From a virus (lineage: Duplodnaviria > Heunggongvirae > Uroviricota > Caudoviricetes), in IMG/VR virus record IMGVR_UViG_648276649_000002: 28,032 nt of DNA, one strand, 5' to 3'. Made by a program: the position numbers and the translations under genes. This document shows, one piece after another, positions 1 through 20,215 of this stretch. The notes under the pieces are model-generated. The model worked only from the letters and a program-made list of their open reading frames with translations. It had not been told where the DNA came from and ran no database searches. How positions within the stretch are numbered: position 1 is the first letter of the stretch; every line of letters starts with the position of its first letter.

Positions 1-258
1 ATGCAAACCGTTATTTTTGGTCGTCCGGGTTGCCCTTACTGTGTGCGTGCAAAAGATCTGGCTGAGAAATTGAGCAATGAACGCGATGATTTTCAGTATC
101 AGTATGTAGATATTCGTGCGGAAGGGATCACTAAAGAAGATCTACAACAAAAGGCAGGTAAACCCGTAGAAACCGTGCCGCAGATTTTTGTCGATCAGCA
201 ACATATCGGCGGCTATACCGATTTTGCTGCATGGGTGAAAGAAAATCTGGACGCCTGA
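1..258 (+). CDS. grxA: glutaredoxin 1
   Basis: 85-aa ORF with CPYC active-site motif; recognised as E. coli GrxA from the translated sequence. Confidence 0.9.
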   Translation: MQTVIFGRPGCPYCVRAKDLAEKLSNERDDFQYQYVDIRAEGITKEDLQQKAGKPVETVPQIFVDQQHIGGYTDFAAWVKENLDA

Positions 259-267
259 TCGTCTGAC

Positions 268-300
268 AAGCCCTCGCGTTGAGGGCTTTACTGATTTTTT
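268..300. terminator. hairpin (aagccctc / gagggctt) followed by T-run, between convergent grxA and ybjM
   Basis: 8-bp inverted repeat with 5-nt loop, then tactgatttttt on the + strand. Confidence 0.5.
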
Positions 301-665
301 CTGTGCTGTGGTTTAAACAAACTACTGATAAATAAGAAACACAGTGCCCCCAGCGCACACCAGAACACCGCGCTTAGTAACCATGCCAGCTCTTGCCAGA
401 ATGAGCGCGTCGGTGAAAAAAACAGCCGCATAATGAGCATCGAACAGGGTGCCGCCAGCATTGCGCCAAACAGAGGTTTCAGGACTTCTCTACGCTGTGA
501 AAAGAAGCTGGCGACTGCTCCAGGAAGAATGAAAAATAGCAAGCCGATTTCAGGATGCCCGGCAGCCCGAAAAGCGCCTTTCATGTGCGTCGCCAGAAAA
601 AGGCACACCACAATGAAGAGGACAAAACAGCAGATTGCCCCCGCCCAACGTTGTTTATGTTTCAC
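288..665 (-). CDS. ybjM: inner membrane protein YbjM
   Basis: 125-aa hydrophobic ORF; position and size match E. coli ybjM next to grxA. Confidence 0.75.
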   Translation of the reverse strand: MKHKQRWAGAICCFVLFIVVCLFLATHMKGAFRAAGHPEIGLLFFILPGAVASFFSQRREVLKPLFGAMLAAPCSMLIMRLFFSPTRSFWQELAWLLSAVFWCALGALCFLFISSLFKPQHRKNQ

Positions 666-934
666 TCGTTCCTCCTGACACTGCGTCTATCGAACACATT
701 TTTCGCCAGTGTGGCGTTCAGTAAGATAAAGCCGCTTCGCATTCCATGCTAATATAGGCCAACGCAATTCATATAGCCGTTGATACCTAATGTGATTACA
801 CTAGTAAAATATATTGTTACTTTACTATCGTTTAGGTGCGCTGAATGAATCTGCGCCCTGAATTCTGGTAAAAAACATTATCGTAAATTACCATTTCTTT
901 CAACAGCTTACTAGTAAACAAGAAGTTAGCCTCC

Positions 935-2620
935 GTGAATATAAACGTCGCCGAATTGTTAAATGGGAATTACATTCTGTTATTATTTGTGGTCCTCGCG
1001 CTTGGGCTATGTCTCGGAAAGTTACGACTTGGTTCGATCCAACTGGGTAATTCCATTGGCGTTTTAGTCGTATCGCTGTTATTAGGCCAACAACATTTCA
1101 GCATTAACACCGATGCGCTTAATCTTGGCTTTATGCTGTTTATTTTCTGCGTCGGGGTCGAAGCCGGACCGAACTTTTTTTCCATTTTTTTTCGCGATGG
1201 GAAAAATTACCTAATGTTAGCACTGGTGATGGTTGGCAGTGCGCTGGTGATCGCCTTAGGGTTAGGTAAGCTGTTTGGCTGGGATATTGGCCTGACGGCC
1301 GGTATGTTAGCAGGCTCTATGACGTCGACACCGGTTCTGGTCGGTGCTGGCGATACACTGCGTCATTCCGGCATGGAAAGCAGGCAGCTCTCACTGGCAC
1401 TGGATAATCTGAGCCTCGGGTATGCCTTAACCTATTTAATCGGTCTGGTGAGTTTGATTGTTGGTGCGCGTTACTTGCCGAAATTGCAGCATCAGGACTT
1501 ACAGACCAGCGCCCAGCAAATCGCCCGCGAACGTGGCCTGGACACTGATGCCAACCGTAAGGTTTATTTACCGGTGATCCGCGCCTATCGCGTCGGCCCG
1601 GAGCTGGTGGCCTGGACCGACGGCAAAAATCTGCGTGAACTGGGTATTTATCGACAAACCGGCTGCTACATTGAACGTATTCGACGTAACGGGATTCTGG
1701 CAAATCCAGACGGTGATGCCGTGCTACAAATGGGCGATGAAATAGCGTTGGTAGGCTATCCCGACGCCCATGCCCGACTCGATCCCAGCTTCCGTAACGG
1801 TAAAGAAGTTTTCGATCGTGACCTTCTCGACATGCGTATCGTCACTGAAGAAGTGGTCGTTAAAAACCATAACGCTGTAGGTAAACGTCTCGCACAACTG
1901 AAGTTGACCGATCACGGTTGCTTCCTTAACCGCGTCATTCGTAGCCAGATTGAGATGCCGATAGATGACAACGTCGTGCTTAACAAAGGTGACGTTTTAC
2001 AAGTCAGCGGTGATGCCCGTCGCGTAAAAACCATCGCCGATCGCATCGGCTTTATCTCGATTCACAGCCAGGTCACTGACCTGCTGGCATTTTGCGCCTT
2101 CTTTGTTATTGGGCTGATGATCGGGATGATCACCTTCCAGTTCAGCACATTCAGTTTCGGCATGGGGAACGCTGCCGGGTTGTTATTCGCCGGAATTATG
2201 CTGGGCTTTATGCGTGCTAACCACCCGACCTTCGGTTACATTCCGCAAGGTGCATTAAGCATGGTGAAAGAGTTCGGCTTGATGGTGTTTATGGCAGGCG
2301 TTGGTCTGAGCGCCGGTAGCGGTATTAATAACGGCCTGGGCGCGATTGGCGGTCAGATGTTGATTGCCGGATTAATTGTCAGTCTTGTGCCCGTGGTTAT
2401 CTGTTTCTTGTTCGGTGCTTATGTATTGCGAATGAACCGCGCACTGTTGTTCGGCGCAATGATGGGCGCACGCACCTGCGCGCCGGCAATGGAGATCATC
2501 AGTGATACAGCTCGCAGTAACATCCCTGCGCTGGGCTACGCGGGCACCTACGCAATCGCCAACGTCCTGCTGACGCTGGCAGGGACAATCATCGTCATGG
2601 TATGGCCAGGATTAGGATAA
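935..2620 (+). CDS. ybjL: putative AAE-family transporter YbjL
   Basis: 561-aa ORF with membrane domains at both ends and a soluble central region; recognised as YbjL from sequence and synteny. Confidence 0.85.
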
Positions 2621-2722
2621 AACTGAAGTTGCCCTGAAAATGAAATTTTTTTGCACAACCGCAGAACTTTTCCGCAGGGCATCAGTCTTAATTAGTGCCA
2701 CTGCTTTTCTTTGATGTCCCCA

Positions 2723-2766
2723 TTTTGTGGAGCCCATCAACCCCGCCATTTCGGTTCAAGGTTGAT
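2723..2766 (+). terminator. terminator-like hairpin in the host-prophage junction region
   Basis: perfect 10-bp inverted repeat cccatcaacc / ggttgatggg with 17-nt loop, followed by tttttt. Confidence 0.4.
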
Positions 2767-2855
2767 GGGTTTTTTGTTGCCTGAAATTTATGCTTTTTAA
2801 AATCATGATGTTAGACGCACTGTTTTTTAATGATGGCGACAAATTGGCGGCAGAG

Positions 2856-3074
2856 TCAAAGAGAGAGCGCCCCCTGTCCTGATTTCATTGGATGCGGCTG
2901 AACCGGATTTGACTCTTTTGGCGTTGCAATCGAACGAACAAAAGTTTCATGGGTTACAAAAGTATGGCTGCAGTTAATATTCTGGCACTGGTTGTAACGC
3001 TCTTTGGTCAATGAAGATACCTGAAAACTGCTGCGAGTATGGGCGGCACTTCCACACAGTGGGCAAATCATCAT
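2856..3074 (-). CDS. ogr: Ogr/B-family zinc-finger late-gene activator
   Basis: 72-aa product from ATG at 3074 (MMICPLCGSAAHTRSS...CQNINC) with Cys4 pattern like P2 Ogr; GGGAGA 9 nt upstream. Confidence 0.8.
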   Translation of the reverse strand: MMICPLCGSAAHTRSSFQVSSLTKERYNQCQNINCSHTFVTHETFVRSIATPKESNPVQPHPMKSGQGALSL

Positions 3075-3164
3075 TTTTCGAGTTCTCCCCATTTTTGCTA
3101 AATTCACAATAATGATACCGCATTATTCCATTTTGCAAACTTAAAAGTTCTCCATTGCGAAGAA

Positions 3165-4265
3165 TCATTCCATTTCGAAATCATCAATCCTCACTTCAAG
3201 CTCCAGACTGGTCGTAAAACCATTATCCGGGCTGACGGTATGTGTCAGAGTCGTAATGGTCCATTCCGCATCATCTATCGGCTGTTTAAAACCACTGACC
3301 TTCACAGGCATTTCCGTGTAGAGATCTGCCCGCCCTTCTGCCAGTTGTAGAGAAAATGACGCAACGCCGCGTTGCAGGCGTTCCCACTGCATTTTCGCCG
3401 CTCGTTCGGCGTTGCTCCGGTTGGCATAAGTGCGATTAAGTACCAGCACGTTTTCATCCGTACCCACCAGGTAATCGCCCTGCTTCGCTTCTGGCTCTTT
3501 CTTCTGCTTCTTAGTTCTGCGCTTACGCTTCACCGTGGTGCTTTCTTTCTTCGCAGGTTCGCGGGTATGCAACCAGCTGGCAATTACGCCCGTGTAGGCT
3601 CCGCGATCTGCCAGGGTAAAGCGGTGACTGTCGCCGTCCTTACGTGTGATAGTGATCACCGGCAGTGGTTTACCGCTAGCACTTTTACCCTGTCCCTGCC
3701 GGATGAATAACAGATTGCCATTTTTCACCGACGCAATAGCACCGTACTGGCGCGCCAGCCGCATCAGAAAACTGCCGTCACTCTCATTAGTCTGGTCTAT
3801 ATGCTCCACAGGCTTATCCGACAGGTCTTTACCCAGTGCCATCTTCAGCTTGTGACGTACGGCTATTTCCTTCACTACTTCCCCGACGGTGGTCTTGTGC
3901 CACGACTTTTCACGGCGGGTATTCAGCGTTTCACGAAAATCAGCACTTCGCGCCCGAATAGTCAGGCGGTCCGGTGCGCCAGTGTGTTCAATCTCGTCCA
4001 CCGTGAATGCCCCTTTCGGGAAAAGCGGCTGCCCCTTCCAGCCCAGCGCCAGCGTAATGACCGCACCACGGCGCGGCAGCACGATTTTTCCGTCGGCGTC
4101 GTCCAGCTCCAGATCAAGCTGGTCCGCTTCAAAGCCCCGATTGTCCGTCAGCGTCAGACTCATCAGACGGTTATCCAGCACAGTGGTGATATCCCTGCCC
4201 TCAATACTGATACTGAATGCCGGAGTTTTGTTGCCTTTGTTAAGCAGTTCAGAGCTGAAATTCAT
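3165..4265 (-). CDS. D: tail protein D (late control D family)
   Basis: 366-aa ORF in the P2 gpD position; basic Lys/Arg-rich central segment; overlaps U stop. Confidence 0.85.
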   Translation of the reverse strand: MNFSSELLNKGNKTPAFSISIEGRDITTVLDNRLMSLTLTDNRGFEADQLDLELDDADGKIVLPRRGAVITLALGWKGQPLFPKGAFTVDEIEHTGAPDRLTIRARSADFRETLNTRREKSWHKTTVGEVVKEIAVRHKLKMALGKDLSDKPVEHIDQTNESDGSFLMRLARQYGAIASVKNGNLLFIRQGQGKSASGKPLPVITITRKDGDSHRFTLADRGAYTGVIASWLHTREPAKKESTTVKRKRRTKKQKKEPEAKQGDYLVGTDENVLVLNRTYANRSNAERAAKMQWERLQRGVASFSLQLAEGRADLYTEMPVKVSGFKQPIDDAEWTITTLTHTVSPDNGFTTSLELEVRIDDFEME

Positions 4266-4747
4266 GACAGCAGCCCTCCCACCGTTTTACTGATATCGCT
4301 TAAGGCAGATGTTGCCATGTCCTGCAGATTATTCAGCTGCGCACTGAGATCACCAAACATATCGGACAGGGATTCATCCACCCGTTTGAGCGACAGGGTG
4401 AACTCAATCCGGCGCGGCATACCGTCGCGGAAAAACTCCGTTTTGGTCTGATTCAGTCCCTCAATCACATACATGCCGTAAATCGTGCCGCTGCCTTCAA
4501 TCAGGGGCCATGCTTTCCCCTGCTCTGCCATCTGCTCCAGTGCCAGCAATGACAGCCTGCCGCCTGTTATCTCCGGCATAAGAACACCAGAAAGCGTCAG
4601 CATGTCGTTGTCCGGTCCCAGAAACTGCGTGGATGGACGACGATTTACCCGACTGTTAGCCGCATGTCGCCAGCTGCGCTGATACTGCAGTTCCTGATAC
4701 GGCACGGTGCGCAGCATAAACACGTACAATCCCAGCACCATCATCAT
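4262..4747 (-). CDS. U: tail protein U
   Basis: 161-aa ORF between T and D, as in P2 FETUD. Confidence 0.8.
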   Translation of the reverse strand: MMMVLGLYVFMLRTVPYQELQYQRSWRHAANSRVNRRPSTQFLGPDNDMLTLSGVLMPEITGGRLSLLALEQMAEQGKAWPLIEGSGTIYGMYVIEGLNQTKTEFFRDGMPRRIEFTLSLKRVDESLSDMFGDLSAQLNNLQDMATSALSDISKTVGGLLS

Positions 4748-6300
4748 GCGTCGTATCCCCCCTGATCGCTGTAGTTACTCCTGGCTTTTGCCTTCAGCCT
4801 GCGTTCACGTTCATCAAGCTGGCGGGCCACCTCCCGCGCAATATCCTGCGCACTTTGTCCTGGCTGCGTCTGAATGATGATCTGCGTCGGTGCCTCAATC
4901 CGTTGAACGGGCGGCACAGTGGCTGCACGACTCACCATCGCTTCGCCGCCTTTCGCGGGAAGTGCCAAAGGATGTAACGGTGGAAGCTCTGTAGGCGCGG
5001 CAGCAACGCCCATCATTTCGGCAACAACCGCAGCCAGTGCAGCGGTATTTCTCCGGCTGGTCACGTTTGCCGGGCCGTTGACAATTTCCGGCCCGTTTTC
5101 ACCGACGATGCCAAACTGCCCGCGCGGGATATAGCCGCCGCTGTCATACATCCCCGCAAAGCCATATCCCCATGACGGAAAACCACCCGATGGCATCATC
5201 ACTTTACCGTCTGCATTCACCGTCGCAGGTTGCTGACGCGTCACGCTTTCCGGCAGTTTCGCCTTTGCGGCCTCTTTACTGACAATGCCGAGCTTCTCCA
5301 GCAACCAGGAAACGCCGGATTTCAGTGAGTCCAGCGGATGCATGACCATATTCAGCCCTTCCGCCAGTGCCTCCCCGAATCGCCGCCCCATTGCCGCTGC
5401 ACTCTGCAGTTCGGCAGAGGTCGACTTAACGGGCGTCAGCAGATCAGTAAACCAGCCCCACAGCGCCTGCACTTTGTCGCCAATCCACTGAAACACAGGC
5501 TTAAGTGGTTCGAATGCAGCACTGATGGGACCTGCCGCCGCTTTGAATCCTTCCACCACGCCACCGAGAAATGCGGTGATGGGTTGCCAGTATTTCCAGA
5601 CAACCAGCGCCACGCCCGCCAGTGCAGTAACCACAAGACCTATCGGACTGAGCAGAGCACCTAACAGACCAGATACGGCATACAGAGCAACGCGCAGCAT
5701 CGCCAGCGGACCGGATGCCAGCACTCGCAGCACCGCGCCTGCGGCGGTCAGTCCACCGCGCAGTACCGCCAGTGGATTCATAAACATCACAGCAACCGCA
5801 CGTAAACCGGATAATCCAGACCGCAATAGTGCAACCGGCGCACCTGCTACAGTTTTCAGGACATTTCCCGTCAGTGATGCCGTACGGCGCAAAGACGACA
5901 ACGGCGCAGTAAGTAAACCCGCTGCGTTACCCGATGAAGCAAGCCCGCGTCGCAGCACTGCCAGTGGAGCGCCAGCCAGCCAGGACAACGCGCTGCTGGT
6001 TCGTGTTACTGCTGCCGTAACGGAAGGTAACGTTTTGATGCCCAGCACAGAGAATCCCAGACGGATGACTGCCAGCGGCCCCAGCACTGCAGCCAGCGCC
6101 ACAGCCAGGGTGCCGAGTCCTACGGTAACCGCAGCCACAATAGCGGCTACTTTCATCAGTGTGCCCGTCAGTTCCGGGTTAGCTTCCACCCAGCGACGCA
6201 ACGCTCCCGTAACGCTTTTCACCGTGTACAGAATATCCATCAGCGGCATAACGTCAGTAACGGATGGCGGCCAGTGAAAAATGGTGGCGATATCAGCCAC
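4744..6300 (-). CDS. T: tail tape measure protein, shortened; no independent ATG, frame continuous with E'
   Basis: 518-aa Ala/Leu/Gly-rich ORF with hydrophobic repeats and a C-terminal MYDSGGYIPRGQFGIVGENGPEI-type segment; only about 1.56 kb lies between E and U. Confidence 0.7.
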   Translation of the reverse strand: MADIATIFHWPPSVTDVMPLMDILYTVKSVTGALRRWVEANPELTGTLMKVAAIVAAVTVGLGTLAVALAAVLGPLAVIRLGFSVLGIKTLPSVTAAVTRTSSALSWLAGAPLAVLRRGLASSGNAAGLLTAPLSSLRRTASLTGNVLKTVAGAPVALLRSGLSGLRAVAVMFMNPLAVLRGGLTAAGAVLRVLASGPLAMLRVALYAVSGLLGALLSPIGLVVTALAGVALVVWKYWQPITAFLGGVVEGFKAAAGPISAAFEPLKPVFQWIGDKVQALWGWFTDLLTPVKSTSAELQSAAAMGRRFGEALAEGLNMVMHPLDSLKSGVSWLLEKLGIVSKEAAKAKLPESVTRQQPATVNADGKVMMPSGGFPSWGYGFAGMYDSGGYIPRGQFGIVGENGPEIVNGPANVTSRRNTAALAAVVAEMMGVAAAPTELPPLHPLALPAKGGEAMVSRAATVPPVQRIEAPTQIIIQTQPGQSAQDIAREVARQLDERERRLKAKARSNYSDQGGYDA

Positions 6301-6314
6301 CAGATCGTCAACCG

Positions 6315-6617
6315 TCAGGCTGTCGGTAAACCGGCAAGCACCGACTTCTTCAACAAAAAAGTGACAACCTCAACCGACATGGCAGTGAGATCTGCCGGGT
6401 CCATCTCTGCAATTTCCTGTGCAGTCAGTGCCGGACTGGAGATGCGGGGGATCACGGTCATCATCGCGTTCACATCCATATCCATAATGGCCTGCAGGCG
6501 TGTACCGCGCAGCGCACCGGACTGCGGTTTACGCAGCACAATTTCGGTGATTTCTGTTTTACCTCGCTTGATGGGGGTATCCAGTTGAATAGTCTTTTCA
6601 GTCTGCTTATCGCTCAT
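6315..6617 (-). CDS. E: tail assembly chaperone E
   Basis: 100-aa ORF directly upstream of the tape measure; contains the slippery heptamer near its 3' end. Confidence 0.8.
   Translation of the reverse strand: MSDKQTEKTIQLDTPIKRGKTEITEIVLRKPQSGALRGTRLQAIMDMDVNAMMTVIPRISSPALTAQEIAEMDPADLTAMSVEVVTFLLKKSVLAGLPTA
6354..6360 (-). other. programmed -1 frameshift slippery heptamer T TTT TTG (E to E')
   Basis: on the - strand reads ACT TTT TTG in the E frame; the -1 frame is open from here into the T ORF. Confidence 0.7.
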
Positions 6618-6671
6618 TTTGCTGTCCTGTAAATTGGGTTCTGGCGCGGTATCCCGCGCCGTTCAGATACA

Positions 6672-7187
6672 TCAGAGGCCGAGGGCGTTGCGGTGCGCTT
6701 CCATCAGGTCCACACCGTCCACAATTTCCACCATGTTGATAAGGTCCACTTCATAGAGCACCTCACCATTTATAGTCAGCTTCGCGTAGCTGTTGGTACT
6801 GGTCACTTTGGTGGTGTTGCTTTCGCCCGTCTTCCACTCTCCGGAATCCACTTCTTTGTGACGTCCACGCACCACAAGCTCCACAGCCTGCACTTCCCCG
6901 GTATCGTCACGCTGGATAGAGCCGGTAAAGCGCAGCTGGATGCCATCCACCGTAGCTTTGCCCATCTGTTTAAACAGCAGCAGTTCAGTACCACCAATGG
7001 AAAATTCTGTGTCCAGCGCACTGTCATCAAGCCCCAGATCCACATCCACTGCACCCGGCATTCCGCCGCCGCGATACTTCTCATATTTGCGGGTGAATTT
7101 CGGCAGCGTCAGCGACTCAACGATCCCCTGCCAGTTGTTCCCGTCATTAAACAGGTTCAGGTGTTTTAATTTGCGTGGTAAAGCCAT
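6672..7187 (-). CDS. FII: tail tube protein FII
   Basis: 171-aa ORF, size and position of P2 gpFII. Confidence 0.85.
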   Translation of the reverse strand: MALPRKLKHLNLFNDGNNWQGIVESLTLPKFTRKYEKYRGGGMPGAVDVDLGLDDSALDTEFSIGGTELLLFKQMGKATVDGIQLRFTGSIQRDDTGEVQAVELVVRGRHKEVDSGEWKTGESNTTKVTSTNSYAKLTINGEVLYEVDLINMVEIVDGVDLMEAHRNALGL

Positions 7188-7196
7188 GTTGTCCCC

Positions 7197-8036
7197 TTAC
7201 GCGCTGACCTGGCTGGAGAAATTCACCAGGTACTGATCGGTGATGCGCTGACGCAGCATCAGGTTTTCAAGTGGCGGCACTGGCGTGTAGTCGTAATCGA
7301 TGGTGAGTTTTCCGGCTTTCAGGGTGTCTTTGTCGTTCACCGACTCGTCCAGCCAGCAATCACCACCAATGAGATACCCCTGACTTACCAGGCTGCGCAT
7401 TTTGGCGCGGATACCCTCGATAATGTCGCGCGCCAGCGACGGGTTCAGCGGTTTGTCCACCGCCCACATGTGCGCTTCTGCCATTGTGTCCGTCAGCACC
7501 TGCGCCGTGCGAGTGTAGTTTTCGAAAGCAAAAAGCGGATCATCGCTCAGACAGCGGGAACCCCAGAAGCGGAAACCATCCTTGCGCACAAGCGTGGTGA
7601 CGTCGTTCTGGTTAAGCAGTCCCGCATCGGTTGCCGGGTCCTGCAGATCCCAGAACACATCAGCAGAAATTCCGGTGACACCGTTCACGCCCACGTTGGA
7701 CAGGCTTTTGTGCCATCCGGTCTGCTCGTCAATTTTGGCGCGCAGACCAAGCGCTCGGGCGGTGGCATATGCCGTTGCTTCGGCATTCAGCACCGTGTCC
7801 CAGCCAGTAAAGTCAGGCCAGATCAGCATCCCTTCGCGCTGGCTAAAGTTTTCACGGTAAGTGATCGCCTCCTGTACCGTCTTGCAGCCATACGCTGACA
7901 GGTAAGCAAATCCACGCAGGCTTTGCGCCACGCTCAGCAACTCAGTAGCTACCGCCTTGGTGTCGTGGCCTGGCACGCCGAGAATGCGCGGTTTAACGCC
8001 GAGCTGTGACTGGGCAGATAATCCAGTTGGTTTCAA
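7197..8036 (-). pseudogene. FI: tail sheath protein FI, 5'-truncated; retains about the C-terminal 280 of about 396 aa
   Basis: strong match to P2-type sheath from [11 protein letters not shown] onward to [12 protein letters not shown]; no N-terminal third and no ATG (the track start is TTG). Confidence 0.8.
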
Positions 8037-8148
8037 GGTCGCCCGTTTTCACCCGGCAAAGCCAGTTATCCCGGTCCACCTCGGTGACTACACCAGTGCG
8101 GATCAGGTTGGTGATAAGGCGCATGATTTCAGTCAGTTGTGCATTCAT
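7993..8148 (-). pseudogene. V: baseplate spike protein V, N-terminal fragment of about 45 aa then out-of-frame tail
   Basis: ATG at 8148; [36 protein letters not shown] resembles gpV N-terminus; runs into the FI remnant. Confidence 0.65.
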
Positions 8149-8159
8149 GAGAGCGATCC

Positions 8160-8188
8160 TTGCACAACCGGGTAGAGTGATGTAATAC
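8160..8188 (+). promoter_or_regulatory. candidate sigma70 promoter for the antisense moron ORF
   Basis: TTGCAC, 17-nt spacer, TAATAC on the + strand about 55 nt upstream of ATG 8244. Confidence 0.35.
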
Positions 8189-8196
8189 AGAGCGTA

Positions 8197-8214
8197 TGTA
8201 TGGAGAACCACACA
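8197..8214. promoter_or_regulatory. TGT-N12-ACA dyad, candidate Ogr-dependent late promoter element (pV)
   Basis: TGTatggagaaccacACA, centred about 57 nt upstream of the V' start codon; shares gaACCACACAAA with the dyad upstream of P. Confidence 0.4.
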
Positions 8215-8243
8215 AAAGAGAAACAATTTCTAAGGTATTTAAG

Positions 8244-9110
8244 ATGACACAAATCGCAATTTATGGATTTAATTTCACTAAAAAAATCACATTTGACGGT
8301 GGTGAGTTAACTCCTATTTTCAGTTCATGGAGTGAGTTAAAAAAAAATGGCTGGGATAATGATAGGTACATCCTCACTGGTTTTTTCAAACCAAACTCGA
8401 ATAACTACGCCACTCAACAGCAGCTTATTTTTGATTTACAAGCAGTTCTTAGTTTTATTGAACAAAAAAATGTAATCATTTCAGGAGAACTTGAAAATGA
8501 TGAAACCCCTTTCAATTTCAAACCATCTCTACCCAAAAAGCTTGACAAAAAAAGAGATAAGGGTGCGGGCATTATCATCATGGAAGATTATTTTGCACCA
8601 AACAGCCGAGAAAATTTTATTTGCTTAGCCATGGAAAAACTAAATAGTAAAGCCATGCTAAAACAAGATGCCTTTAGAACATCATTTTTTAAATCAATGC
8701 TAGCTTTCCGCGACTCAATAAATTATATCGACGTCAGATATTATTTATTATTCTCGGCACTAGAAGCACTTTGCAGATTTATTAAAAATGACTACTCCCC
8801 TGCCAAAACACCACAAATAATCACTCAGGTTTTAAAAGAATATGGTTTTAATGTCGAAAAAACAGGACATACATTAGCTCAAAGAAACATTATGCATTAC
8901 TGCAAACTCCGTCACTCGCTGTTCCACAATGGTAAATACATTGCCTATCTTGATGAAAAAAACTCAGATGGCAAAATTGAAATTCAAGATTACTCATCAA
9001 ATTTGAATTTACTGGTGCCACTTGTACTAATGAAATTCATAGGATTTGATGACAATTATATAAACTGGGACTCATGGATTGATAGGAATCCATTTATCAG
9101 TAAAAAGTAA
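8244..9110 (+). CDS. hypothetical cargo protein, possible HEPN-like (Rx4H) abortive-infection candidate
   Basis: 288-aa ORF from ATG 8244 with AAGG upstream; strongly AT-rich, antisense to the late operon; C-terminal YCKLRHSLFHNGK motif. Confidence 0.7.
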   Translation: MTQIAIYGFNFTKKITFDGGELTPIFSSWSELKKNGWDNDRYILTGFFKPNSNNYATQQQLIFDLQAVLSFIEQKNVIISGELENDETPFNFKPSLPKKLDKKRDKGAGIIIMEDYFAPNSRENFICLAMEKLNSKAMLKQDAFRTSFFKSMLAFRDSINYIDVRYYLLFSALEALCRFIKNDYSPAKTPQIITQVLKEYGFNVEKTGHTLAQRNIMHYCKLRHSLFHNGKYIAYLDEKNSDGKIEIQDYSSNLNLLVPLVLMKFIGFDDNYINWDSWIDRNPFISKK

Positions 9111-9136
9111 ACTAAATTTTATAAATGTGGTTTTAT

Positions 9137-9583
9137 TTATCTCTGTAACCAATTTAGCAAAGCATCCTGAATGACAGTTTCCACATCATCATTTACGCCT
9201 AGGAGACGACGCTCTGCATAACGGACCTCCGGTCCTCTTCGACTGATGCGATCACGCAGGCCGTAGTGATGAACGCGGGCAATGCGCTGCACCTTACCTT
9301 CAAACTGCACGCTGGCAGAATCGGCGCTGGCGGCAGTTTTCAGGTATTTTGTGGTGCGCAGCTTTGTAAACATCTGACGTTTGATGCGCCCCTTTTTGCT
9401 GCGTGCTGTTACCCGTCGCGGCTCATAACTGCTGCCATCTGGATTGCGCTGCATCCTGATGTTCTGCTGCTGTGTCCGGCGCAGTTCCTGCGCCAGCTGG
9501 CGCATCATGCGGCTTCTTGCGGCTGGCTCCAGATTCGCCAGCAAGGCACTCAGCCAGTCGTCCACCTTCTGCAATTCAGCCAC
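9137..9583 (-). CDS. S: tail completion protein S
   Basis: 148-aa ORF in the gpS position downstream of R. Confidence 0.8.
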   Translation of the reverse strand: MAELQKVDDWLSALLANLEPAARSRMMRQLAQELRRTQQQNIRMQRNPDGSSYEPRRVTARSKKGRIKRQMFTKLRTTKYLKTAASADSASVQFEGKVQRIARVHHYGLRDRISRRGPEVRYAERRLLGVNDDVETVIQDALLNWLQR

Positions 9584-10007
9584 GTTTCACCGTCCACATT
9601 TCTTCAGGTTCATCAGGTTCCGCTATAGCTTCAACGCTCGACACACTGCCGTCAGTGCTGACCAGCACACGCTCCGTCAGTTGCAGGTTCAGGCTGATAT
9701 CACAGACATCGTTGCGCAGAATATCCACCTCAAAGGTGAATAGTTTTTCCCGTAACGCCGGGTTATTGATGGCATCGGGCTGGTTATCCCGCAGCCACAG
9801 CAAAACCGGGGCCATCAGCAGATTCTGGTCGCCGCTGAAATCCTCAATCACTGCGTTCAGCGTGTAACGGTACTCCCACGACATGGAGCTGGTCCCCGTG
9901 GCAACCAGCGAACCGTTATCCACAAACAGATGCAGTTTGTCCGGGTTATTGCGGACATAAGGCACTGCTTTATTAAGGGCGTGGCGCAGGGATTGTGGTT
10001 TGTTCAC
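9576..10007 (-). CDS. R: tail completion protein R
   Basis: likely GTG start at 10007 with AGGAG 8 nt upstream; gpR-like size and position. Confidence 0.75.
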   Translation of the reverse strand: MNKPQSLRHALNKAVPYVRNNPDKLHLFVDNGSLVATGTSSMSWEYRYTLNAVIEDFSGDQNLLMAPVLLWLRDNQPDAINNPALREKLFTFEVDILRNDVCDISLNLQLTERVLVSTDGSVSSVEAIAEPDEPEEMWTVKRG

Positions 10008-10260
10008 TGTTTCGCTCCTGACACGCAATAATCATGTCCACTTTGTCTGCACAGACCGCCCAGGCGGCCTCCGTTTCATCCAGCAACGCGTTCAGCTCAC
10101 CGTTAGTGCGCGGCGCTGTCTGATCCAGCCGACACGGCGTCACTCGCGGACAACCACTGACGGTAAGCTGCACCTCCGGTGAGTGCCGGACGTTCCCGCA
10201 GCCGGATAATGTCAGCAGGCAAAGGAGTATCAGCCCAGCGGCGTAAATCCTCATTCTCAC
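9973..10260 (-). CDS. lysC: o-spanin (Rz1-like outer-membrane lipoprotein LysC)
   Basis: starts inside lysB in another frame; signal peptide with lipobox LTLSGC; Pro-rich C-terminus. Confidence 0.7.
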   Translation of the reverse strand: MRMRIYAAGLILLCLLTLSGCGNVRHSPEVQLTVSGCPRVTPCRLDQTAPRTNGELNALLDETEAAWAVCADKVDMIIACQERNSEQTTIPAPRP

Positions 10261-10531
10261 GTTTCAGTTCCTCAATCCGGCGTTGTCGTTGTCTCAGCAG
10301 CGCGCTGGTCTGTTCTGCGTCGGCATAGAGCCGCGCCTGCTCCCGGTTATTGGTTTCAGTCAGAATGGACAGGCTGATAAGCTGGCTGTTGCTCTTTGCC
10401 AGTGCCTGGCTTTTGCTCTGCAGCTCGTCCGCCTGCGTGCTGATGGTCCGGCTGGCATCAGCCAGCCGCCACGTCTGCCAGCCCAGCGCCGCCAGTAATA
10501 ACGCCAGCATAACCAGCAGCAACCGGTTCAT
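10103..10531 (-). CDS. lysB: i-spanin (Rz-like LysB)
   Basis: N-terminal transmembrane helix followed by coiled-coil-like charged region; overlapped by lysC. Confidence 0.75.
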   Translation of the reverse strand: MNRLLLVMLALLLAALGWQTWRLADASRTISTQADELQSKSQALAKSNSQLISLSILTETNNREQARLYADAEQTSALLRQRQRRIEELKRENEDLRRWADTPLPADIIRLRERPALTGGAAYRQWLSASDAVSAGSDSAAH

Positions 10532-10905
10532 GCTGCTACCTGTTGCGCCATCTGATTACGGGTGATCCAGAAGGCAATAACGGTCAGTAGATAAAAGACC
10601 AGGGTAATAGCCCACCCCGTCCAGACGAGACTTACGACAATCAGCAATCGCATCACCCAGCTGATAAATACGTTTTCTTTTCGGGTAATGGTCTTCAGCA
10701 AAGATACCCTCAACTCCTGCCAGAGCGAGCCATTCTTAATTAACGCAGCCAGTGCTACCGGAATTGCCGCCCATGTCAGTAAACAGGCTACCCAAACGCC
10801 GGACGCTGCCAGTACCGAAAAAATCCCCTGCGGATACACCATTGCTGCGATTAACAGCGCCATCCATAACATCAGAAACAGTCCGCTGATTAATTTCTTT
10901 TTCAT
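10528..10905 (-). CDS. lysA: lysis regulatory membrane protein LysA
   Basis: ATG at 10905 with GGGAG upstream; multi-TM small protein after the endolysin. Confidence 0.7.
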   Translation of the reverse strand: MKKKLISGLFLMLWMALLIAAMVYPQGIFSVLAASGVWVACLLTWAAIPVALAALIKNGSLWQELRVSLLKTITRKENVFISWVMRLLIVVSLVWTGWAITLVFYLLTVIAFWITRNQMAQQVAA

Positions 10906-10906
10906 T

Positions 10907-11419
10907 TCAGTTTGCTCCCTGTAAGCACCAGGCCATCTCCCGCGCACGGCGGTTATCCAGCCCCTGATTAAACACACCTTTCACATACACCCAGCGCGGC
11001 AACTGTCGGCACGCATCCGCCCAGCGCCGCTGATTGAGCAATTTCACCAGCGTGGAGCTGCAGGCATTGCCTGTCCCCACGTTGAAGGCAAATGACACCA
11101 CCGCGTCATACACTTTCTGCGGTGGCTGTTGCTTCACACACCTTTCCAGTGACCGCTCCACACGCAGCACGTTGGAGATAAGCCCTTCTGCTGCCTGTCG
11201 TTCCGTAATGGTTTTGCCGGGAATGACGTCCGACGTATTACCAATGCCGTCAGTCCATACACCCGCGCTGCACTGATACGGCTGCAGACGACAGCCTTCG
11301 TAATCGGCAATCAGTTTCAGTCCTTCCACGGAGGTGTGAAGCTGCTGAAAACCCGGCAGCGTGGCAGCAATAGCCAGCACGGCCCCGACAAGGCAGCGTT
11401 TAACGATTGATGGATTCAT
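10907..11419 (-). CDS. K: endolysin, phage lysozyme with N-terminal signal-anchor-like segment
   Basis: 170-aa ORF with hydrophobic N-terminus and lysozyme-like EG...D...T region; P2 gpK position. Confidence 0.85.
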   Translation of the reverse strand: MNPSIVKRCLVGAVLAIAATLPGFQQLHTSVEGLKLIADYEGCRLQPYQCSAGVWTDGIGNTSDVIPGKTITERQAAEGLISNVLRVERSLERCVKQQPPQKVYDAVVSFAFNVGTGNACSSTLVKLLNQRRWADACRQLPRWVYVKGVFNQGLDNRRAREMAWCLQGAN

Positions 11420-11615
11420 AATCCTCCCGCGAGATCTGCCCGTCGCGCAGAAGCTGGTAGGCTTTGTGTTTGTAGTACCAGTTGATAGCCAGCATCAGTA
11501 CACCAATCATCAGGCCGCCCAGCGTTGAGGCATCCTTGATGGACAAATCACCCAGCCAGGCCAGCACGACGGCGATGCAATACGTGATAAAGGCGCTGAT
11601 TCGCTCAAGCGTCAT
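11400..11615 (-). CDS. Y: holin
   Basis: 71-aa protein with two hydrophobic helices and charged C-terminus, immediately upstream of the endolysin. Confidence 0.7.
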   Translation of the reverse strand: MTLERISAFITYCIAVVLAWLGDLSIKDASTLGGLMIGVLMLAINWYYKHKAYQLLRDGQISREDYESINR

Positions 11616-11618
11616 AAT

Positions 11619-11822
11619 TCAGTCCCATAGCTGGACGGTCTGCACGGTGGTGGTTGTCGGAATGTCCGGCAGCTCCACCTGCAGCCCGTGAGGTAAAAAG
11701 GGGCCGTATTCGGCAAGCCCCGGATTTGCCTTCAGTACCTGCTCCGTGACACCCTGCGTGCGCCCGTAATGACGCCAGCAAAGTGCGTCCACCGTGTCAT
11801 ACTGATGCGCACGCACTTTCAT
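11619..11822 (-). CDS. X: tail protein X
   Basis: 67-aa ORF in the gpX position between L and the holin. Confidence 0.7.
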   Translation of the reverse strand: MKVRAHQYDTVDALCWRHYGRTQGVTEQVLKANPGLAEYGPFLPHGLQVELPDIPTTTTVQTVQLWD

Positions 11823-12286
11823 CAGATAAGCTCCACTGTGCAGTGCGGCGCATCCTGCACCCGGCTGATGGCCCAGCGGGCGTCACGCCATAAATCACCG
11901 CTTGCTTCCGCCAGTTCCTCGCCTCGCTTCGCACCGGATGCCGTGGCGTCATAGTCCTGGTAACGTTCGTTGAGCATGGCGCGTGCCCAGCAGTAAACCG
12001 CGTTGAAATAGTGCTGAATGCGCTCGCTTTTGCCGTCCAGTTGTTCCGCCGGGACTTCTGCCAGCGAGGCATACCCCAGCATCTGCTGGCGTCTGCGAAA
12101 CTCATACAGCTCTGCGTTGACCTCCGAAATTGCCGACAGCGCAACCTGCTTTAAACGCGGCTGCGTCACCGTGCCGTCAGTGCGCATGACACTGCGAAAC
12201 TCCGACAGGTCCACATCAGGCCAGAACGGCGTATTTCTGATGATTTCCGCCTGTTCCGGTGCCTGTTCTGGCGCAACAAACTTCAT
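11822..12286 (-). CDS. L: capsid completion protein L
   Basis: ATG at 12286 with AGGAGA upstream; gpL position. Confidence 0.8.
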   Translation of the reverse strand: MKFVAPEQAPEQAEIIRNTPFWPDVDLSEFRSVMRTDGTVTQPRLKQVALSAISEVNAELYEFRRRQQMLGYASLAEVPAEQLDGKSERIQHYFNAVYCWARAMLNERYQDYDATASGAKRGEELAEASGDLWRDARWAISRVQDAPHCTVELI

Positions 12287-12381
12287 GCTGCTTTCTCCTG
12301 AAATAAAGGGCGGTGGACGGGGTTTTGATGTGGCAGTGCCTTTCGCCACCCCGTGCCGCCCGTGCGCGGGGGCACGTTCTG

Positions 12382-13032
12382 TCAGCGGCTGTCATTGCGC
12401 AGTCTGCGCTCCAGCTGCTGTTTGTCTTTTTTCACGCCACAGCGGGGATCGAGCTGTAACGCATGGTTGAGATGATTAAGGGCGGAAGCCGGATTGCTTT
12501 CACTCAGGACAGCGCCAATCGCTTTATGCAGACGCGCCCGTGACTGGTCCGGCATATCCAGACCGTCTGTCAGCTCCAGCGTCTGCAGCAACAGTTCGGC
12601 ATCAAAGCCGGTGGCGGCAAGCATTGCGCTCTGCGCTGCATCTGCCATTTCCTCTGCCAGCACGGTCTGCACGTTGCGGTTACCCAGCGGCATCACCCAG
12701 CCATGACGCAGGGCATGACGCCCGATCTCCAGCGCCCCGGCATAATCTCCGGCATCAATGCGCCACAGCATCACGTACATCAGCACGTCATCCTGTTGAG
12801 CGCCTCCGGCAGCCAGGACGCCCTCCGCCCAGGCGGCATATTTCGGCAGCAGCTCCACCTTGATTTCCGCTTTTTTCACCGTGGACTGAACGCCCTTGAG
12901 ACGGCGGCGGTCTTCCGCCAGTTGCAGCAGCATCAGGTCATAGCCCGACGCGTGGCGAACGCTGCCGCCCTCGCGGGCGGCCTGTTCAGCCTGAACGCGC
13001 AGGCGATGCTGCCGTGCGGGACTCAGGCTCAT
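12382..13032 (-). CDS. M: terminase small (endonuclease) subunit M
   Basis: 216-aa ORF between N and L as in P2. Confidence 0.8.
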   Translation of the reverse strand: MSLSPARQHRLRVQAEQAAREGGSVRHASGYDLMLLQLAEDRRRLKGVQSTVKKAEIKVELLPKYAAWAEGVLAAGGAQQDDVLMYVMLWRIDAGDYAGALEIGRHALRHGWVMPLGNRNVQTVLAEEMADAAQSAMLAATGFDAELLLQTLELTDGLDMPDQSRARLHKAIGAVLSESNPASALNHLNHALQLDPRCGVKKDKQQLERRLRNDSR

Positions 13033-13035
13033 GGG

Positions 13036-14094
13036 TTACGCTCCGGCTTCTGCTGCGGCGGCGCTGAAATCGCCAATCTGGATGTTTTCCACCAGCGCAG
13101 CGCAGCGGTAGTCCTCAACCACATAGGCTTCGTTAACAGATTCAAAGTTTTCAATCCGGTCACGTTTCGGGTTGTCGATAACTGAACGGCGGCGGGTGTC
13201 TTCCTGCCAGTAGATGGACAGGTTATCCAGACGGGTGATCAGCAGCGCATTCGGCGGGAAGAACGGCGCACGCACGGCCTGCAGACCGCCCATGCGTTTC
13301 TGACTGATAATCATATCGGCTGCCAGTTTTTCACTGTTTTCCTGCTCTTTGTTGACCAGCGGGAAATACTTGTCAGACAGCAGTTCACGACCGCAAATCA
13401 CCATCAGATCGTCATCATCCTGGTAGACCACGTCGATAAGCTCATTGACCGCATCCATCACTACAGCGTCCAGGTTGGCATATTCGCCACCTTTCCCGAC
13501 TTTCACCGCACCCGGTGTGGTTTCGCCGCCCGTGGTGGTGCTGCCCATGACGTGATCCGGTGCATCCTCACGGATTTTCTGCAGCCAGCCTTTGTTCACA
13601 TCCTGCAGCAGCGGGTTTTCACTACGGTTGGAGGTTTTCGCACGCTTCACGCCGTTAAAGCCGATCATGATGCGGTCCAGTGCCTGACGTTTCACGATGG
13701 CGTCACGGATACGCACCTGGAAATCCTGAAACTTCGCCCACAGGTCCAGCTTCGCGTAGGTCAGCACCGTGTCAAAGTTGGTCTGCTCGCATTTATATTC
13801 CACATCGACCATCAGCGTCGGATCGACAGGTTCACGCTCTTTCGCGGTGGTGTCAGTGGTTCCGGCAATGGTGCTGCCAACACCCAGCCCCAGCAACTGA
13901 CCGGACTGCTCAGTCACTGGCGTGACGTTAATCAGCGTCAGGAAGGCGGCGGACTGCTGGATCTGGTCTTCCAGCGTCTGCTGCACAGACGGCTCCACAG
14001 TGAATTTGCTGGACAGTTCTTCAACTGCCACACCGTTCAGACGCGCCAGCTGCTGCAGGTAAGCGTTAAAAGCAAAGCGGGTATTCTTCTTCAT
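13036..14094 (-). CDS. N: major capsid protein N
   Basis: 352-aa ORF, P2 gpN size and position. Confidence 0.9.
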   Translation of the reverse strand: MKKNTRFAFNAYLQQLARLNGVAVEELSSKFTVEPSVQQTLEDQIQQSAAFLTLINVTPVTEQSGQLLGLGVGSTIAGTTDTTAKEREPVDPTLMVDVEYKCEQTNFDTVLTYAKLDLWAKFQDFQVRIRDAIVKRQALDRIMIGFNGVKRAKTSNRSENPLLQDVNKGWLQKIREDAPDHVMGSTTTGGETTPGAVKVGKGGEYANLDAVVMDAVNELIDVVYQDDDDLMVICGRELLSDKYFPLVNKEQENSEKLAADMIISQKRMGGLQAVRAPFFPPNALLITRLDNLSIYWQEDTRRRSVIDNPKRDRIENFESVNEAYVVEDYRCAALVENIQIGDFSAAAAEAGA

Positions 14095-14110
14095 CGGGTT
14101 TTGTGCTCCA

Positions 14111-14944
14111 TCAGCAATTGGTCAGAGTGTCAGCGGGGGCGTTACCGCCTGTTGCACGCTGGCGGTAGTCCTGGCGGCTGTCTTCATGACTCAGCTTGTC
14201 CACCAGTTCGTTAAAGGCGGTCTGCTGTGCCTGCAGGGCAGTCTCCAGCTCAGACAGGCGTTCTTCCTGCTCAGACAGGGATTTTTCGGTGCGTGCGCTC
14301 AGGTTCTGCTGCTCAGTGGCGACCAGCTCCACGGCCTTATGCACATCAGAGAACCGGGCGTCATCGGACTGCTCTTTTTTGGTAAACAGCGCCGTGACGC
14401 GGGCAAACAGGGACGGTTTGTCGTCCTGGACTTCTTCCAGTTCGATCACCGTTTCCTCTGCAGCGGTAAAAAGATTGGCGGGATTCTGCTTGCGGTTTGC
14501 CAGCGGGTTATGGGCTGCACTGGCGCTGAATGTCAGCATTTCCGTACCCAGACTGGCGGGATCATCAGTGGCAGCCAGGCCGACCAGATAGGCTTTGCCC
14601 GTATCAGCGAACTTCGGGCTGACTTCCATAGAGGTGAATAATTTCTGGCCTTTTTTCACCAGTTCCACCAGGGACTCCGTTGGCTCAACGTCGGCATACA
14701 GCGCCATCTTGCCTGCCAGCGGACCTTCCGTGATTTCTTCAGCAAACAGCGCCGTCACCTTGCCGTAGCGGTTAAAGGTGCTGTCCGGCAGATAAGACTT
14801 GATGTGCTCAAGGTTAATCAGCGCGGTATACACCGCCGGGTTGTAGCTGGCTGCCATCTGTTCCAGCCATTCACGCTGGATTTCGCGTCCGTCGGTGGTG
14901 GCACCTTCCACCCCGATGCGAAAACGCTTTGCTTTCACTGTCAT
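14111..14944 (-). CDS. O: capsid scaffolding protein O
   Basis: 277-aa ORF with acidic coiled-coil C-terminal half; divergent from P. Confidence 0.85.
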   Translation of the reverse strand: MTVKAKRFRIGVEGATTDGREIQREWLEQMAASYNPAVYTALINLEHIKSYLPDSTFNRYGKVTALFAEEITEGPLAGKMALYADVEPTESLVELVKKGQKLFTSMEVSPKFADTGKAYLVGLAATDDPASLGTEMLTFSASAAHNPLANRKQNPANLFTAAEETVIELEEVQDDKPSLFARVTALFTKKEQSDDARFSDVHKAVELVATEQQNLSARTEKSLSEQEERLSELETALQAQQTAFNELVDKLSHEDSRQDYRQRATGGNAPADTLTNC

Positions 14945-15022
14945 GAGCCGTGCTCCGTTAGAAAAAACTTACTGGAGCCTTATGGTTGCGGAGATAGGGG
15001 CAGTGAAACAATGCGCGGTATT

Positions 15023-15040
15023 TGTACCGACAACCACACA
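15023..15040. promoter_or_regulatory. TGT-N12-ACA dyad, candidate Ogr-dependent late promoter element in the O/P divergent region
   Basis: TGTaccgacaaccacACA centred about 56 nt upstream of the P start codon. Confidence 0.4.
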
Positions 15041-15086
15041 AACCGCAGGCGGGGAAAGCCTTCATTCAAGGCTGTAGGTTTGTGCC

Positions 15087-16853
15087 ATGAACACCACACT
15101 GACACCCGCAGATCTCGATCCCCGTCGGCAGGCCATGCTGCTGTACTTTCAGGGATACCGCGTCGCCCGCATTGCTGAAATGCTGGGCGAGAAAGTTGCA
15201 ACCGTTCACAGCTGGAAAAAACGCGACAAGTGGGGTGACTATGGGCCGCTGGATCAGATGCAGCTCACCACCGCCGCACGCTACTGCCAGCTCATTATGA
15301 AGGAGCACAAAGAAGGGAAAGATTTCAAAGAGATTGACCTGCTGGCGCGCCAGTCGGAGCGCCACGCGCGGATCGGCAAGTTTAACAATGGCGGCAACGA
15401 AGCCGACTTAAACCCTAACGTCGCCAACCGCAACAAAGGCCCACGCCGTCAGCCGGAAAAGAATGTTTTCACCGATGAGCAGATTGAGAAGCTGGAAGAA
15501 ATCTTCCATTCCTCCATGTTCAACTACCAGCGCCACTGGTGGGAAGCCGGAAAAACCAACCGCATCCGCAACCTGCTGAAGTCACGCCAGATCGGCGCGA
15601 CCTTTTACTTTGCCCGTGAAGCCCTGATTGACGCTCTGCTTACCGGACGTAACCAGATTTTCCTTTCTGCCAGTAAGGCACAGGCCCACGTCTTCAAACA
15701 GTACATCATCGACTTTGCCAAAGAAGTGGAGGTGGAGCTGAAAGGCGATCCGATGGTGCTTCCCAACGGGGCCACACTGTATTTCCTCGGAACCAATGCC
15801 CGCACGGCCCAGAGTTACCACGGCAACCTGTATCTGGATGAATATTTCTGGATACCGAAATTCCAGGAGCTGCGCAAAGTGGCTTCCGGTATGGCTATTC
15901 ACAAAAAATGGCGACAAACCTATTTTTCCACGCCATCCAGCCTGACCCACAGTGCTTATCCGTTCTGGTCCGGTGCGCTGTTCAACCGTGGACGCAACAA
16001 AGCTGACAAGGTGGACATCGACCTGTCCCACAGCAATCTGGCCCCCGGCCTGCTGTGCGCAGACGGGCAATACCGCCAGATAGTCACCGTGGAAGATGCG
16101 GTGCGCGGCGGCTGTAACCTGTTCGACCTCGACCAGCTACGCATGGAGTACAGCCCGGACGAATACCAGAACCTGCTGATGTGCGAGTTCGTGGACGATC
16201 TCGCGTCCGTGTTCCCGCTCAGCGAACTGCAGGCGTGCATGGTGGACAGTTGGGAAGTCTGGACCGACTTTCATGCACTGGCCCTGCGCCCGTTTGGCTG
16301 GCGCGAGGTGTGGATCGGTTATGACCCGGCAAAAGGTACGCAGAACGGCGACAGCGCCGGATGCGTGGTGGTGGCACCGCCAGCCGTGCCAGGCGGTAAG
16401 TTTCGCATTCTTGAGCGTCACCAGTGGCGCGGGATGGACTTCCGCGCCCAGGCGGACGCCATCAAAAAACTGACCGAACAGTACAACGTGACCTATATCG
16501 GCATCGACTCGACAGGTGTCGGTCACGGGGTTTACGAGAACGTGAAAGCGTTTTTTCCAGCCGTCCGGGAGTTTGTCTACAACCCCAACGTTAAAAACGC
16601 CCTGGTACTCAAGGCCTACGACATTATCAGCCACCGCCGTCTGGAGTTTGACGCCGGACACACCGACATAGCGCAGTCATTTATGGCAATCCGTCGCGCC
16701 ACCACCGCCAGCGGCAACCGCCCGACCTATGAAGCCAGCCGCAGCGAAGAAGCCAGCCACGCCGATCTGGCCTGGGCAACGATGCACGCTCTGTTTAACG
16801 AACCGCTGCAGGGCGAATCCGCCAATACCAGCAATATTGTGGAGATTTTTTGA
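15087..16853 (+). CDS. P: terminase large (ATPase) subunit P
   Basis: 588-aa ORF; N-terminus MNTTLTPADLDPRRQAMLLY is gpP-like. Confidence 0.9.
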   Translation: MNTTLTPADLDPRRQAMLLYFQGYRVARIAEMLGEKVATVHSWKKRDKWGDYGPLDQMQLTTAARYCQLIMKEHKEGKDFKEIDLLARQSERHARIGKFNNGGNEADLNPNVANRNKGPRRQPEKNVFTDEQIEKLEEIFHSSMFNYQRHWWEAGKTNRIRNLLKSRQIGATFYFAREALIDALLTGRNQIFLSASKAQAHVFKQYIIDFAKEVEVELKGDPMVLPNGATLYFLGTNARTAQSYHGNLYLDEYFWIPKFQELRKVASGMAIHKKWRQTYFSTPSSLTHSAYPFWSGALFNRGRNKADKVDIDLSHSNLAPGLLCADGQYRQIVTVEDAVRGGCNLFDLDQLRMEYSPDEYQNLLMCEFVDDLASVFPLSELQACMVDSWEVWTDFHALALRPFGWREVWIGYDPAKGTQNGDSAGCVVVAPPAVPGGKFRILERHQWRGMDFRAQADAIKKLTEQYNVTYIGIDSTGVGHGVYENVKAFFPAVREFVYNPNVKNALVLKAYDIISHRRLEFDAGHTDIAQSFMAIRRATTASGNRPTYEASRSEEASHADLAWATMHALFNEPLQGESANTSNIVEIF

Positions 16854-17875: not shown

Positions 17876-17880
17876 TACTA

Positions 17881-17910
17881 TTACAGACACTTTCGTGAAA
17901 GTGTCTGTAA
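17881..17910. other. perfect 13-bp stem-loop between convergent Q and the toxSAS-like gene
   Basis: ttacagacacttt cgtg aaagtgtctgtaa; no clear U-tract on either strand. Confidence 0.35.
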
Positions 17911-17923
17911 TCAAAAAATGAAA

Positions 17924-20205: not shown

Positions 20206-20215
20206 AAAAGTCACC

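Follow-up and report, generated by a model that had tools for sequence, protein, structure and literature searches.

Two tail-gene deletions and a recurrent FI endpoint in an apparently defective 186/P2-type prophage of Escherichia coli

The late genes of phages P2 (NC_001895) and 186 (NC_001317) follow the order S-[orf30 slot]-V-W-J-I-H-G-[Z/fun slot]-FI-FII-E-E'-T-U-D-ogr, with late promoters bearing TGT-N12-ACA boxes and a frameshift site in E/E'. A 2026 NAR survey (PMC13586616) has described large numbers of defective P2-like prophages with conserved cargo genes, and for EC121, an ST101 bloodstream isolate of phylogroup B1, only incomplete phage regions of P2/Fels-2-like type were reported (PMC7355805). 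In the available text of these two papers, core genes are lost and accessory genes kept, as in the locus described here, and that text contains neither breakpoint mapping nor any mention of a recurrent FI or cII endpoint. Illegitimate recombination at short homologies is established in E. coli, for instance in the formation of lambda Spi- and bio transducing phages (PMC3375238, PMC11372144).

The stretch of DNA analysed here, referred to as the window, is the 28,032-nt IMG/VR record IMGVR_UViG_648276649_000002, which, judged by its gene content and order, is a 186/P2-type (Peduoviridae) prophage inserted between ybjL and rcdA. The late genes lie on the minus strand. Starting from ybjL, the order is ogr, D, U, a shortened T, E, FII, a shortened FI and a short start of V, followed by a plus-strand accessory gene of low GC content, S, R, the lysis genes, X, L, M, N, O, P and Q; beyond Q come a RelA_SpoT accessory gene, a DinI/Tum-like gene, A and a Dam-like methylase gene, and then fil, cII, apl, cI and int, the end of which lies at position 28032. 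The flank, the intact genes around the damaged region and the accessory gene are located as follows.

935-2620, ybjL, the flank of the prophage.
2856-3074, minus strand, the ogr/B late-gene activator gene, intact (tblastn) and adjoining attR and ybjL.
3165-4265, minus strand, tail gene D, intact (Pfam and tblastn).
4262-4747, minus strand, tail gene U, intact (Pfam and tblastn).
6672-7187, minus strand, tail tube gene FII, intact, 171 aa and 100% identical to its relatives.
8244-9110, plus strand, the low-GC (34-40%) accessory gene encoding 288 aa (phrog_4373), in the P2 orf30 slot between S and V and bordering the scar.
9137-9583, minus strand, tail-completion gene S, intact, the last gene of the O operon ahead of the scar region.

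Membership in the P2/186 group is indicated by the late-gene synteny and P2-family domains, which are present except for a deleted interval (Pfam, PHROG and tblastn), by the Ogr/B zinc-finger activator together with TGT-N12-ACA boxes upstream of the late operons, and, at the sequence level, by the E/E' -1 frameshift site upstream of the tape-measure gene. The regulators (cI, apl, cII, fil and the DinI/Tum-like gene) are of the 186 type, and the proteins are only 38-70% identical to those of P2. Compared with P2 and 186, the window lacks the interval from inside V to inside FI and its T gene is halved; compared with P2, a RelA_SpoT gene stands in place of old/tin and a different gene occupies the orf30 slot. 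Apart from V, FI, E'/T and the deleted genes, every phage gene is full length by tblastn against intact relatives, including the head, packaging, lysis, replication and lysis-lysogeny switch genes and the integrase gene.

Two intact prophages from complete genomes served as reference relatives, one from E. coli BS15R-A (L001, NZ_CP063349) and one from E. coli YZLc4-1 (L011, NZ_CP123260). Both share the ybjL-rcdA integration site and the gene order with the window, and their tail genes are 99.9-100% identical to it. In contrast to the window, both retain a 6,343-bp V-to-FI interval and a 1,633-bp E'/T interval. The YZLc4-1 prophage is 100% identical to window positions 6240-8021 and 99.9% identical, with 13 mismatches, to 8022-19900 (from the V remnant, V', through the accessory region), and the undamaged genes are 97-100% identical to its own with the exception of three, encoding Dam, Fil and cI.

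The immunity region of the YZLc4-1 prophage is unlike that of the window. Positions 25926-26943, comprising cI, a 218-aa ORF and downstream sequence, have no nucleotide match to that prophage, and the two cI proteins are only 40-50% identical, which indicates an apparent mosaic swap of the repressor module. The RelA_SpoT protein (17924-18928, minus strand) is a low-GC-encoded, small alarmone synthetase-like protein of 334 aa located in the known GpA-GpQ defence hotspot; it matches the PADLOC candidate PDC-S33 (E 2e-16), its nearest solved relatives are the synthetases YjbM and YwaC, and it carries an extra C-terminal region of ~130 aa. The Dam-like orphan DNA adenine methyltransferase gene (22968-23885, minus strand) lies between A and a TraR-like gene, and the DUF3850 gene that comes next after it in YZLc4-1 is missing in the window. 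The 288-aa protein of the orf30 slot has no match in PADLOC, Pfam or PDB, and its gene has been retained by most decayed sister copies, being lost from L014, L015 and L022.

A deletion scar joining the N-terminus of V to the C-terminal part of FI had been proposed from the sequence alone (the original prediction), and collinear alignment to both intact relatives confirmed it: 6,343 bp are absent from the window, and the flanks on either side are 99.9-100% identical to the relatives. The scar comprises three features.

8015-8021, no strand, the V/FI deletion junction, CAGATAA, where the alignment blocks overlap.
7993-8148, minus strand, the V' ORF of 51 aa, made up of V residues 1-43, eight out-of-frame FI-derived codons and a TAA stop (7995-7993).
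7197-8021, minus strand, the tail-sheath remnant FI', residues 117-390 of 390, without the N-terminal domain, its own start codon and a ribosome-binding site.

The junction thus falls within the range of 8000-8060 that had been proposed for it. The FI parent reads CAGATAA exactly and the V parent CAGTTAA, leaving TAA at 8019-8021 as exact microhomology; since the FI parent is exact and the V side of the best relatives is one base off in this 7-nt repeat, the crossover is placed inside TAA. Against L011, window position 8021 corresponds to 10157 in FI and window position 8015 to 16494 in V.

The predicted gpV-like start at ATG 8148 was correct, as it coincides with the annotated V start of the intact relatives (L011 16627), and the retained part is 43 residues of 192 rather than the 45 originally given. 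These residues match the V proteins of L001 and L011 at 97.7% and P2 gpV residues 5-45 at 41%, and fall in a PHROG baseplate-assembly family (E 6e-12). The FI remnant was likewise recognized properly and starts at residue 117 instead of about 110. Residues 117-390 correspond to P2 FI 122-395, are 100% identical to the intact relatives and contain the Pfam domains Phage_sheath_1 and Phage_sheath_1C, with the motif GVKPRILG beginning at FI residue 124; possible internal starts are TTG 8036 and GTG 7931, both gene-caller choices. One correction to the description of V running straight into FI is needed, in that the two frames differ (127 nt apart, 127 mod 3 = 1) and V' stops at 7993 after the eight out-of-frame codons. 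An in-frame V-FI fusion protein was rejected on these grounds, and the join therefore exists at the DNA level, with no V-FI chimera encoded.

Lost with this deletion are codons 44-192 of V and codons 1-116 of FI, the genes W, J and I, the fibre gene H and the genes for fibre assembly, the invertible fibre segment together with its invertase, and the late promoter pF. In tblastn searches with P2 and L001/L011 queries, W, J, I, H, G/tfa, the invertase and Fun(Z) had no match anywhere in the window, nor did the gp53-like invertible segment and both fibre-assembly genes of the relatives. The rest of V, W, J, I, H, G and the Z/fun slot are accordingly absent as predicted, and the missing tail genes are not found elsewhere in the window.

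A second deletion, which the original prediction had overlooked along with the recurrence of the FI endpoint described below, affects E' and T.

6240-6247, no strand, the second deletion junction, an exact 8-bp microhomology TCAGCGGC at which 1,633 bp are missing.
4744-6300, minus strand, the in-frame E'(1-24)::T(526-1025) fusion ORF, a truncated tape-measure gene.
6315-6617, minus strand, the tail assembly chaperone gene E, intact, with the TTTTTTG slippery site at 6360-6354.

E' codons 25-39 and T codons 1-525 were removed by this event. At the slippery site the -1 frame is open into E', which predicts that frameshifting would now lead into an E-E'::T(526-1025) chaperone/tape-measure fusion. 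With both deletions in one tail operon, tail assembly is expected to be blocked twice over.

Two late-promoter boxes bear on the transcription of what remains.

8197-8214, minus strand, a putative pV Ogr/B activator box, TGTGTGGTTCTCCATACA, centred 57 nt upstream of the V ATG.
15023-15040, the pO/pP late-promoter box (TGT-N12-ACA) between O and P.

The geometry of the former is that of the annotated pV activator site of P2, which lies ~55 nt upstream of V. The TGT-N12-ACA pattern is not enriched in the window (9 found versus 7.6 expected), and only the positions of the matches are informative. A pF box is found only in the intact relative, 85 nt from the FI ATG in L011 (83 nt in P2), and falls inside the deleted segment; going by the alignment, the end of the V operon must presumably fall there as well. 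No convincing terminator was predicted in the stretch from V' to FII. As pF and the V-operon terminator would both be gone, FI'-FII-E-E'::T'-U-D would now be transcribed from pV only, and it is plausible that pV drives the remaining tail genes, as had been suggested earlier.

The scar is carried by many assemblies. The exact 51-aa junction peptide was found in 33 index blocks of a public assembly collection, at least 24 contigs of which were read, and the carriers come from NCBI, Logan and IMG/VR, having been assembled independently and with different assemblers. GCA_000779655.1 (JSPJ01000019) is 100% identical to window 1-18148, one IMG/VR contig carrying the scar is identical to the window, and EC121 (VYQD01) has the same scar together with a further deletion of 14.3 kb. 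The GenBank protein EFK51475.1 from E. coli MS 107-1 is a 279-aa FI' ORF that includes V-derived out-of-frame residues. The exact junction is absent from the GTDB species representatives and JGI/ENA metagenome contigs, and a relaxed junction pattern in the GTDB/JGI/ENA metagenome search recovered one more independent junction, L025.

We are highly confident that the window holds an ordinary defective 186/P2-type prophage, produced by two clean RecA-independent short-homology deletions, with a clonally inherited scar. The crossover of the first deletion in TAA (8019-8021) would leave the out-of-frame 51-aa V' and a start-less sheath fragment, and that of the second in TCAGCGGC (6240-6247) would fuse E' in frame to the C-terminal half of T. 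By analogy with P2/186 genetics, the element would probably remain inducible and able to replicate, to fill heads with DNA and to lyse its host, and would lack the means to produce a baseplate, fibres, a sheath that polymerises and a correct tape measure. The scar would then have been passed down a clonal lineage whose prophage continues to lose DNA. Defectiveness is indicated by the truncation of V, the absence of W, J, I and H, and the loss of residues 1-116 from FI and 1-525 from T, the essentiality of the lost genes being taken from P2 genetics; the gene losses seen in the sequence thus support the proposal of a cryptic prophage without baseplate and fibre genes.

Other kinds of element with a partial phage gene set fit less well. 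An R-type tailocin would show the opposite pattern: here it is the baseplate and fibres that are missing and the sheath that is truncated, with the genes for the head and for packaging undamaged. A capsid-forming satellite of the cf-PICI kind is contradicted by the full-size phage genome with its own lysis genes and a 186-type switch, by the leftover tail genes FII, E, U, D, R, S and X, and by the loss of head genes in sister copies.

The deletion joints, which show 2-11 bp of microhomology and neither an IS element nor a recombinase site, are like those of classical illegitimate recombination. Simple slippage would not predict, however, that the same endpoint turns up in several lineages, joined to partners 6-24 kb distant, and its recurrence in unrelated prophage remnants suggests that the scar may not have arisen by a purely random slip. 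The FI endpoint GGGCAGA^TAA (8017-8021; FI ending GGGCAGATA(A)) is joined to at least six partners other than that of the window, in various lineages and FI alleles, and the 3' part of FI is retained in every case. The partners are the following.

V codon 43, in this clone.
V codon 159, in the complete genome OHT76-1 (L039).
The pO region, in L014, a contig of the same clone.
A 51-nt fragment of gene S, in L022, which has an intact T and a head module of only 96.8% identity.
Gene A, in L025, a gut-metagenome contig whose FI allele is 96.8% identical.
cII, in the complete genomes SF10 and HL15 (L027).
Unassigned sequence, in protein P0012.

In every contig that has the E'::T' fusion and keeps the 5' end of FI, this FI endpoint is used, joined either as in the V/FI scar or as in L014; L022 combines the endpoint with an intact T and a different partner. 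Two further endpoints recur, as seen in L003, L006, L014, L027, L038 and L040. The cII endpoint at 25289/25290 (CCAGA^TACC; CCAGA^TACCGCACC, 25286-25290) has four partners, namely lysA (EC121), FI (SF10), D (EC06) and an IS66 fragment (ECL27977), and the pO endpoint at 14992-14996 (GGAGA^TAGG; GGAGA^TAGGGGCAG) is used twice. AGA^TA is common to the FI, cII and pO endpoints.

It is a real possibility, which we put forward tentatively, that the FI break was not random and that a site-directed lesion or replication stall at GGGCAGA^TAA left a free end that was joined at a distant microhomology. The sharing of the FI endpoint among several partners kilobases away and the recurrence of the cII and pO endpoints speak for this, as does the clustering of endpoints within the clone, where two endpoint pairs lie at most 5 nt apart against 0.12 expected (simulation P = 0.006). 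Chance hardly accounts for seven partners and at least five different FI alleles, although several of the FI-endpoint cases came from searches that required this endpoint, so that the enrichment is only partly unbiased. Among complete genomes, truncation near the FI site is rare, affecting 6 of 985 records when the query was 300 nt long and 5 of 966 when it was 90 nt; of the six records truncated within 150 nt of the site, about five also appear truncated with flanks of 45 nt on either side, and one of these five was inspected. Other FI endpoints also exist, as in L033, joined at about codon 318. Against a directed break stand the failure to find an enzyme or structure behind it, the presence of CAGATA 18 times on the plus strand of the window with most copies not being endpoints, and the weakness of the hairpin beside the FI site (z = -1.6). 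Were it true, it would alter how the deletion arose and leave the nature of the scar as it is.

Several specific causes of the break were considered and found no support. An integrase-mediated event does not fit, as the att core ATGGGTTTTTTGTT is unrelated to the junction, and neither does Chi-limited RecBCD resection, there being no Chi site within kilobases of the FI site. For a self-targeting CRISPR protospacer, a 90-nt FI query (E <= 10) returned five partial records in 5,426 genomes without a spacer signal, and the PAM geometry does not suit either the cII or the pO site. Cleavage of a pseudo-origin by the A protein was discarded because the origins of P2, 186 and the window lack convincing similarity to the hot spots, and a local hairpin as the cause is weak and not significant.

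A broader version of the same idea, which strikes us as rather unlikely, is that inactivation of P2/186-like prophages in E. coli is partly sequence-directed: a break or stall site at FI codon 117, with companions in cII (codon ~113) and pO, would repeatedly give rise to extensive one-sided deletions in which the prophage ends (int-cI-cII' and FI'-ogr) are always retained, and the scar would be the product of an unrecognised host or phage nuclease, topoisomerase or replication-stall mechanism.

The preferred reading, an ordinary prophage disabled by two short-homology deletions, is accompanied by ongoing decay in the clone. The sister contigs (L002-L008, L012-L016, L021 and L024) differ from the window by 0-1 substitutions over 8-18 kb. 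Between them they show about 11 different extra deletions, which are found on about half of the contigs read, and in one case a split endolysin gene. The extra deletions were mapped as follows, in window coordinates.

10967-25289, in EC121.
3773-7572, in L004.
10063-15030 and 5451-7982, in L005.
15962-17065, 14145-14994 and 2539-5660, in L006, the last clipping the 3' end of ybjL.
12262-17183, in L007, L008 and L016.
8021-14991, in L014.
6919-18040, in L015.
11709-14772, in L024.

In L021 the endolysin gene is split and there is no further deletion. The deletion joints of the clone have 2-11 bp of microhomology and no IS element. Two differing variants of the clone came from the neighbouring runs ERR15823426 and ERR15823428. 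The pO region or lysis genes were lost in about six variant types, which is not significant in this sample; such losses fit selection against a prophage that kills its cell and does not spread, with the sample being too small to establish it.

P2 heads and tails are assembled separately, and the prophage could in principle be a functional tail-less element, kept by selection, that makes DNA-filled heads and obtains tails from a co-resident or superinfecting P2-like phage. In favour of this, the genes for heads, packaging, replication, lysis and regulation are all undamaged, with 98-100% identity, and many E. coli genomes hold at least two P2-like prophages (the median number of matching places per genome being 2). 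This is nevertheless very improbable, since about half of the clone contigs have lost head, packaging or lysis genes or have the endolysin gene split, and the leftover FI', E'::T', U and D were not cleanly removed. The losses of head and lysis genes and the leftover tail genes argue that there is no purifying selection on a head-only design, and the extra deletions in the clone point to plain decay rather than selection for such a design.

Still less credible is a deletion made by the phage's own Cin/Gin-type invertase at quasi-crossover sites. The invertase gene does sit in the deleted segment, adjoining FI, and a genuine join of a crossover site to FI exists in L033 (GCA_019164795.1), where at 2240-2300 the site TTCTCCCAAACCAAGG directly abuts FI at about codon 318, apparently as the result of a rearrangement by an invertase at a quasi-site within the sheath gene. 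At the scar of the window, neither side of 8015-8021 resembles the crossover site TTCTCCCAAACC-AA-GGTTT, and the join lies at the outer edge of a would-be site rather than at its central dinucleotide. An assembly artefact in which two contigs were mis-joined, in whose favour only the absence of the exact junction from all 5,426 complete RefSeq E. coli genomes can be cited, is effectively refuted by the identical junction in independent assemblies from NCBI, Logan and IMG/VR (at least 24 contigs), by an overlap of 3-7 nt that is far too short for a de Bruijn-graph mis-join, and by GenBank proteins translated across the junction.

The scar described here is real but ordinary, a well-mapped new example of its kind, of which the recurrent breakpoints alone might surprise specialists. 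It marks the prophage as defective, which matters for annotation and for predicting phage release by a strain that carries it. The scar-bearing clone, with about a dozen further deletions, constitutes a natural time series of prophage decay. If the reuse of breakpoints reflects a defined lesion, the way in which bacteria disarm their prophages would become testable at a known site.
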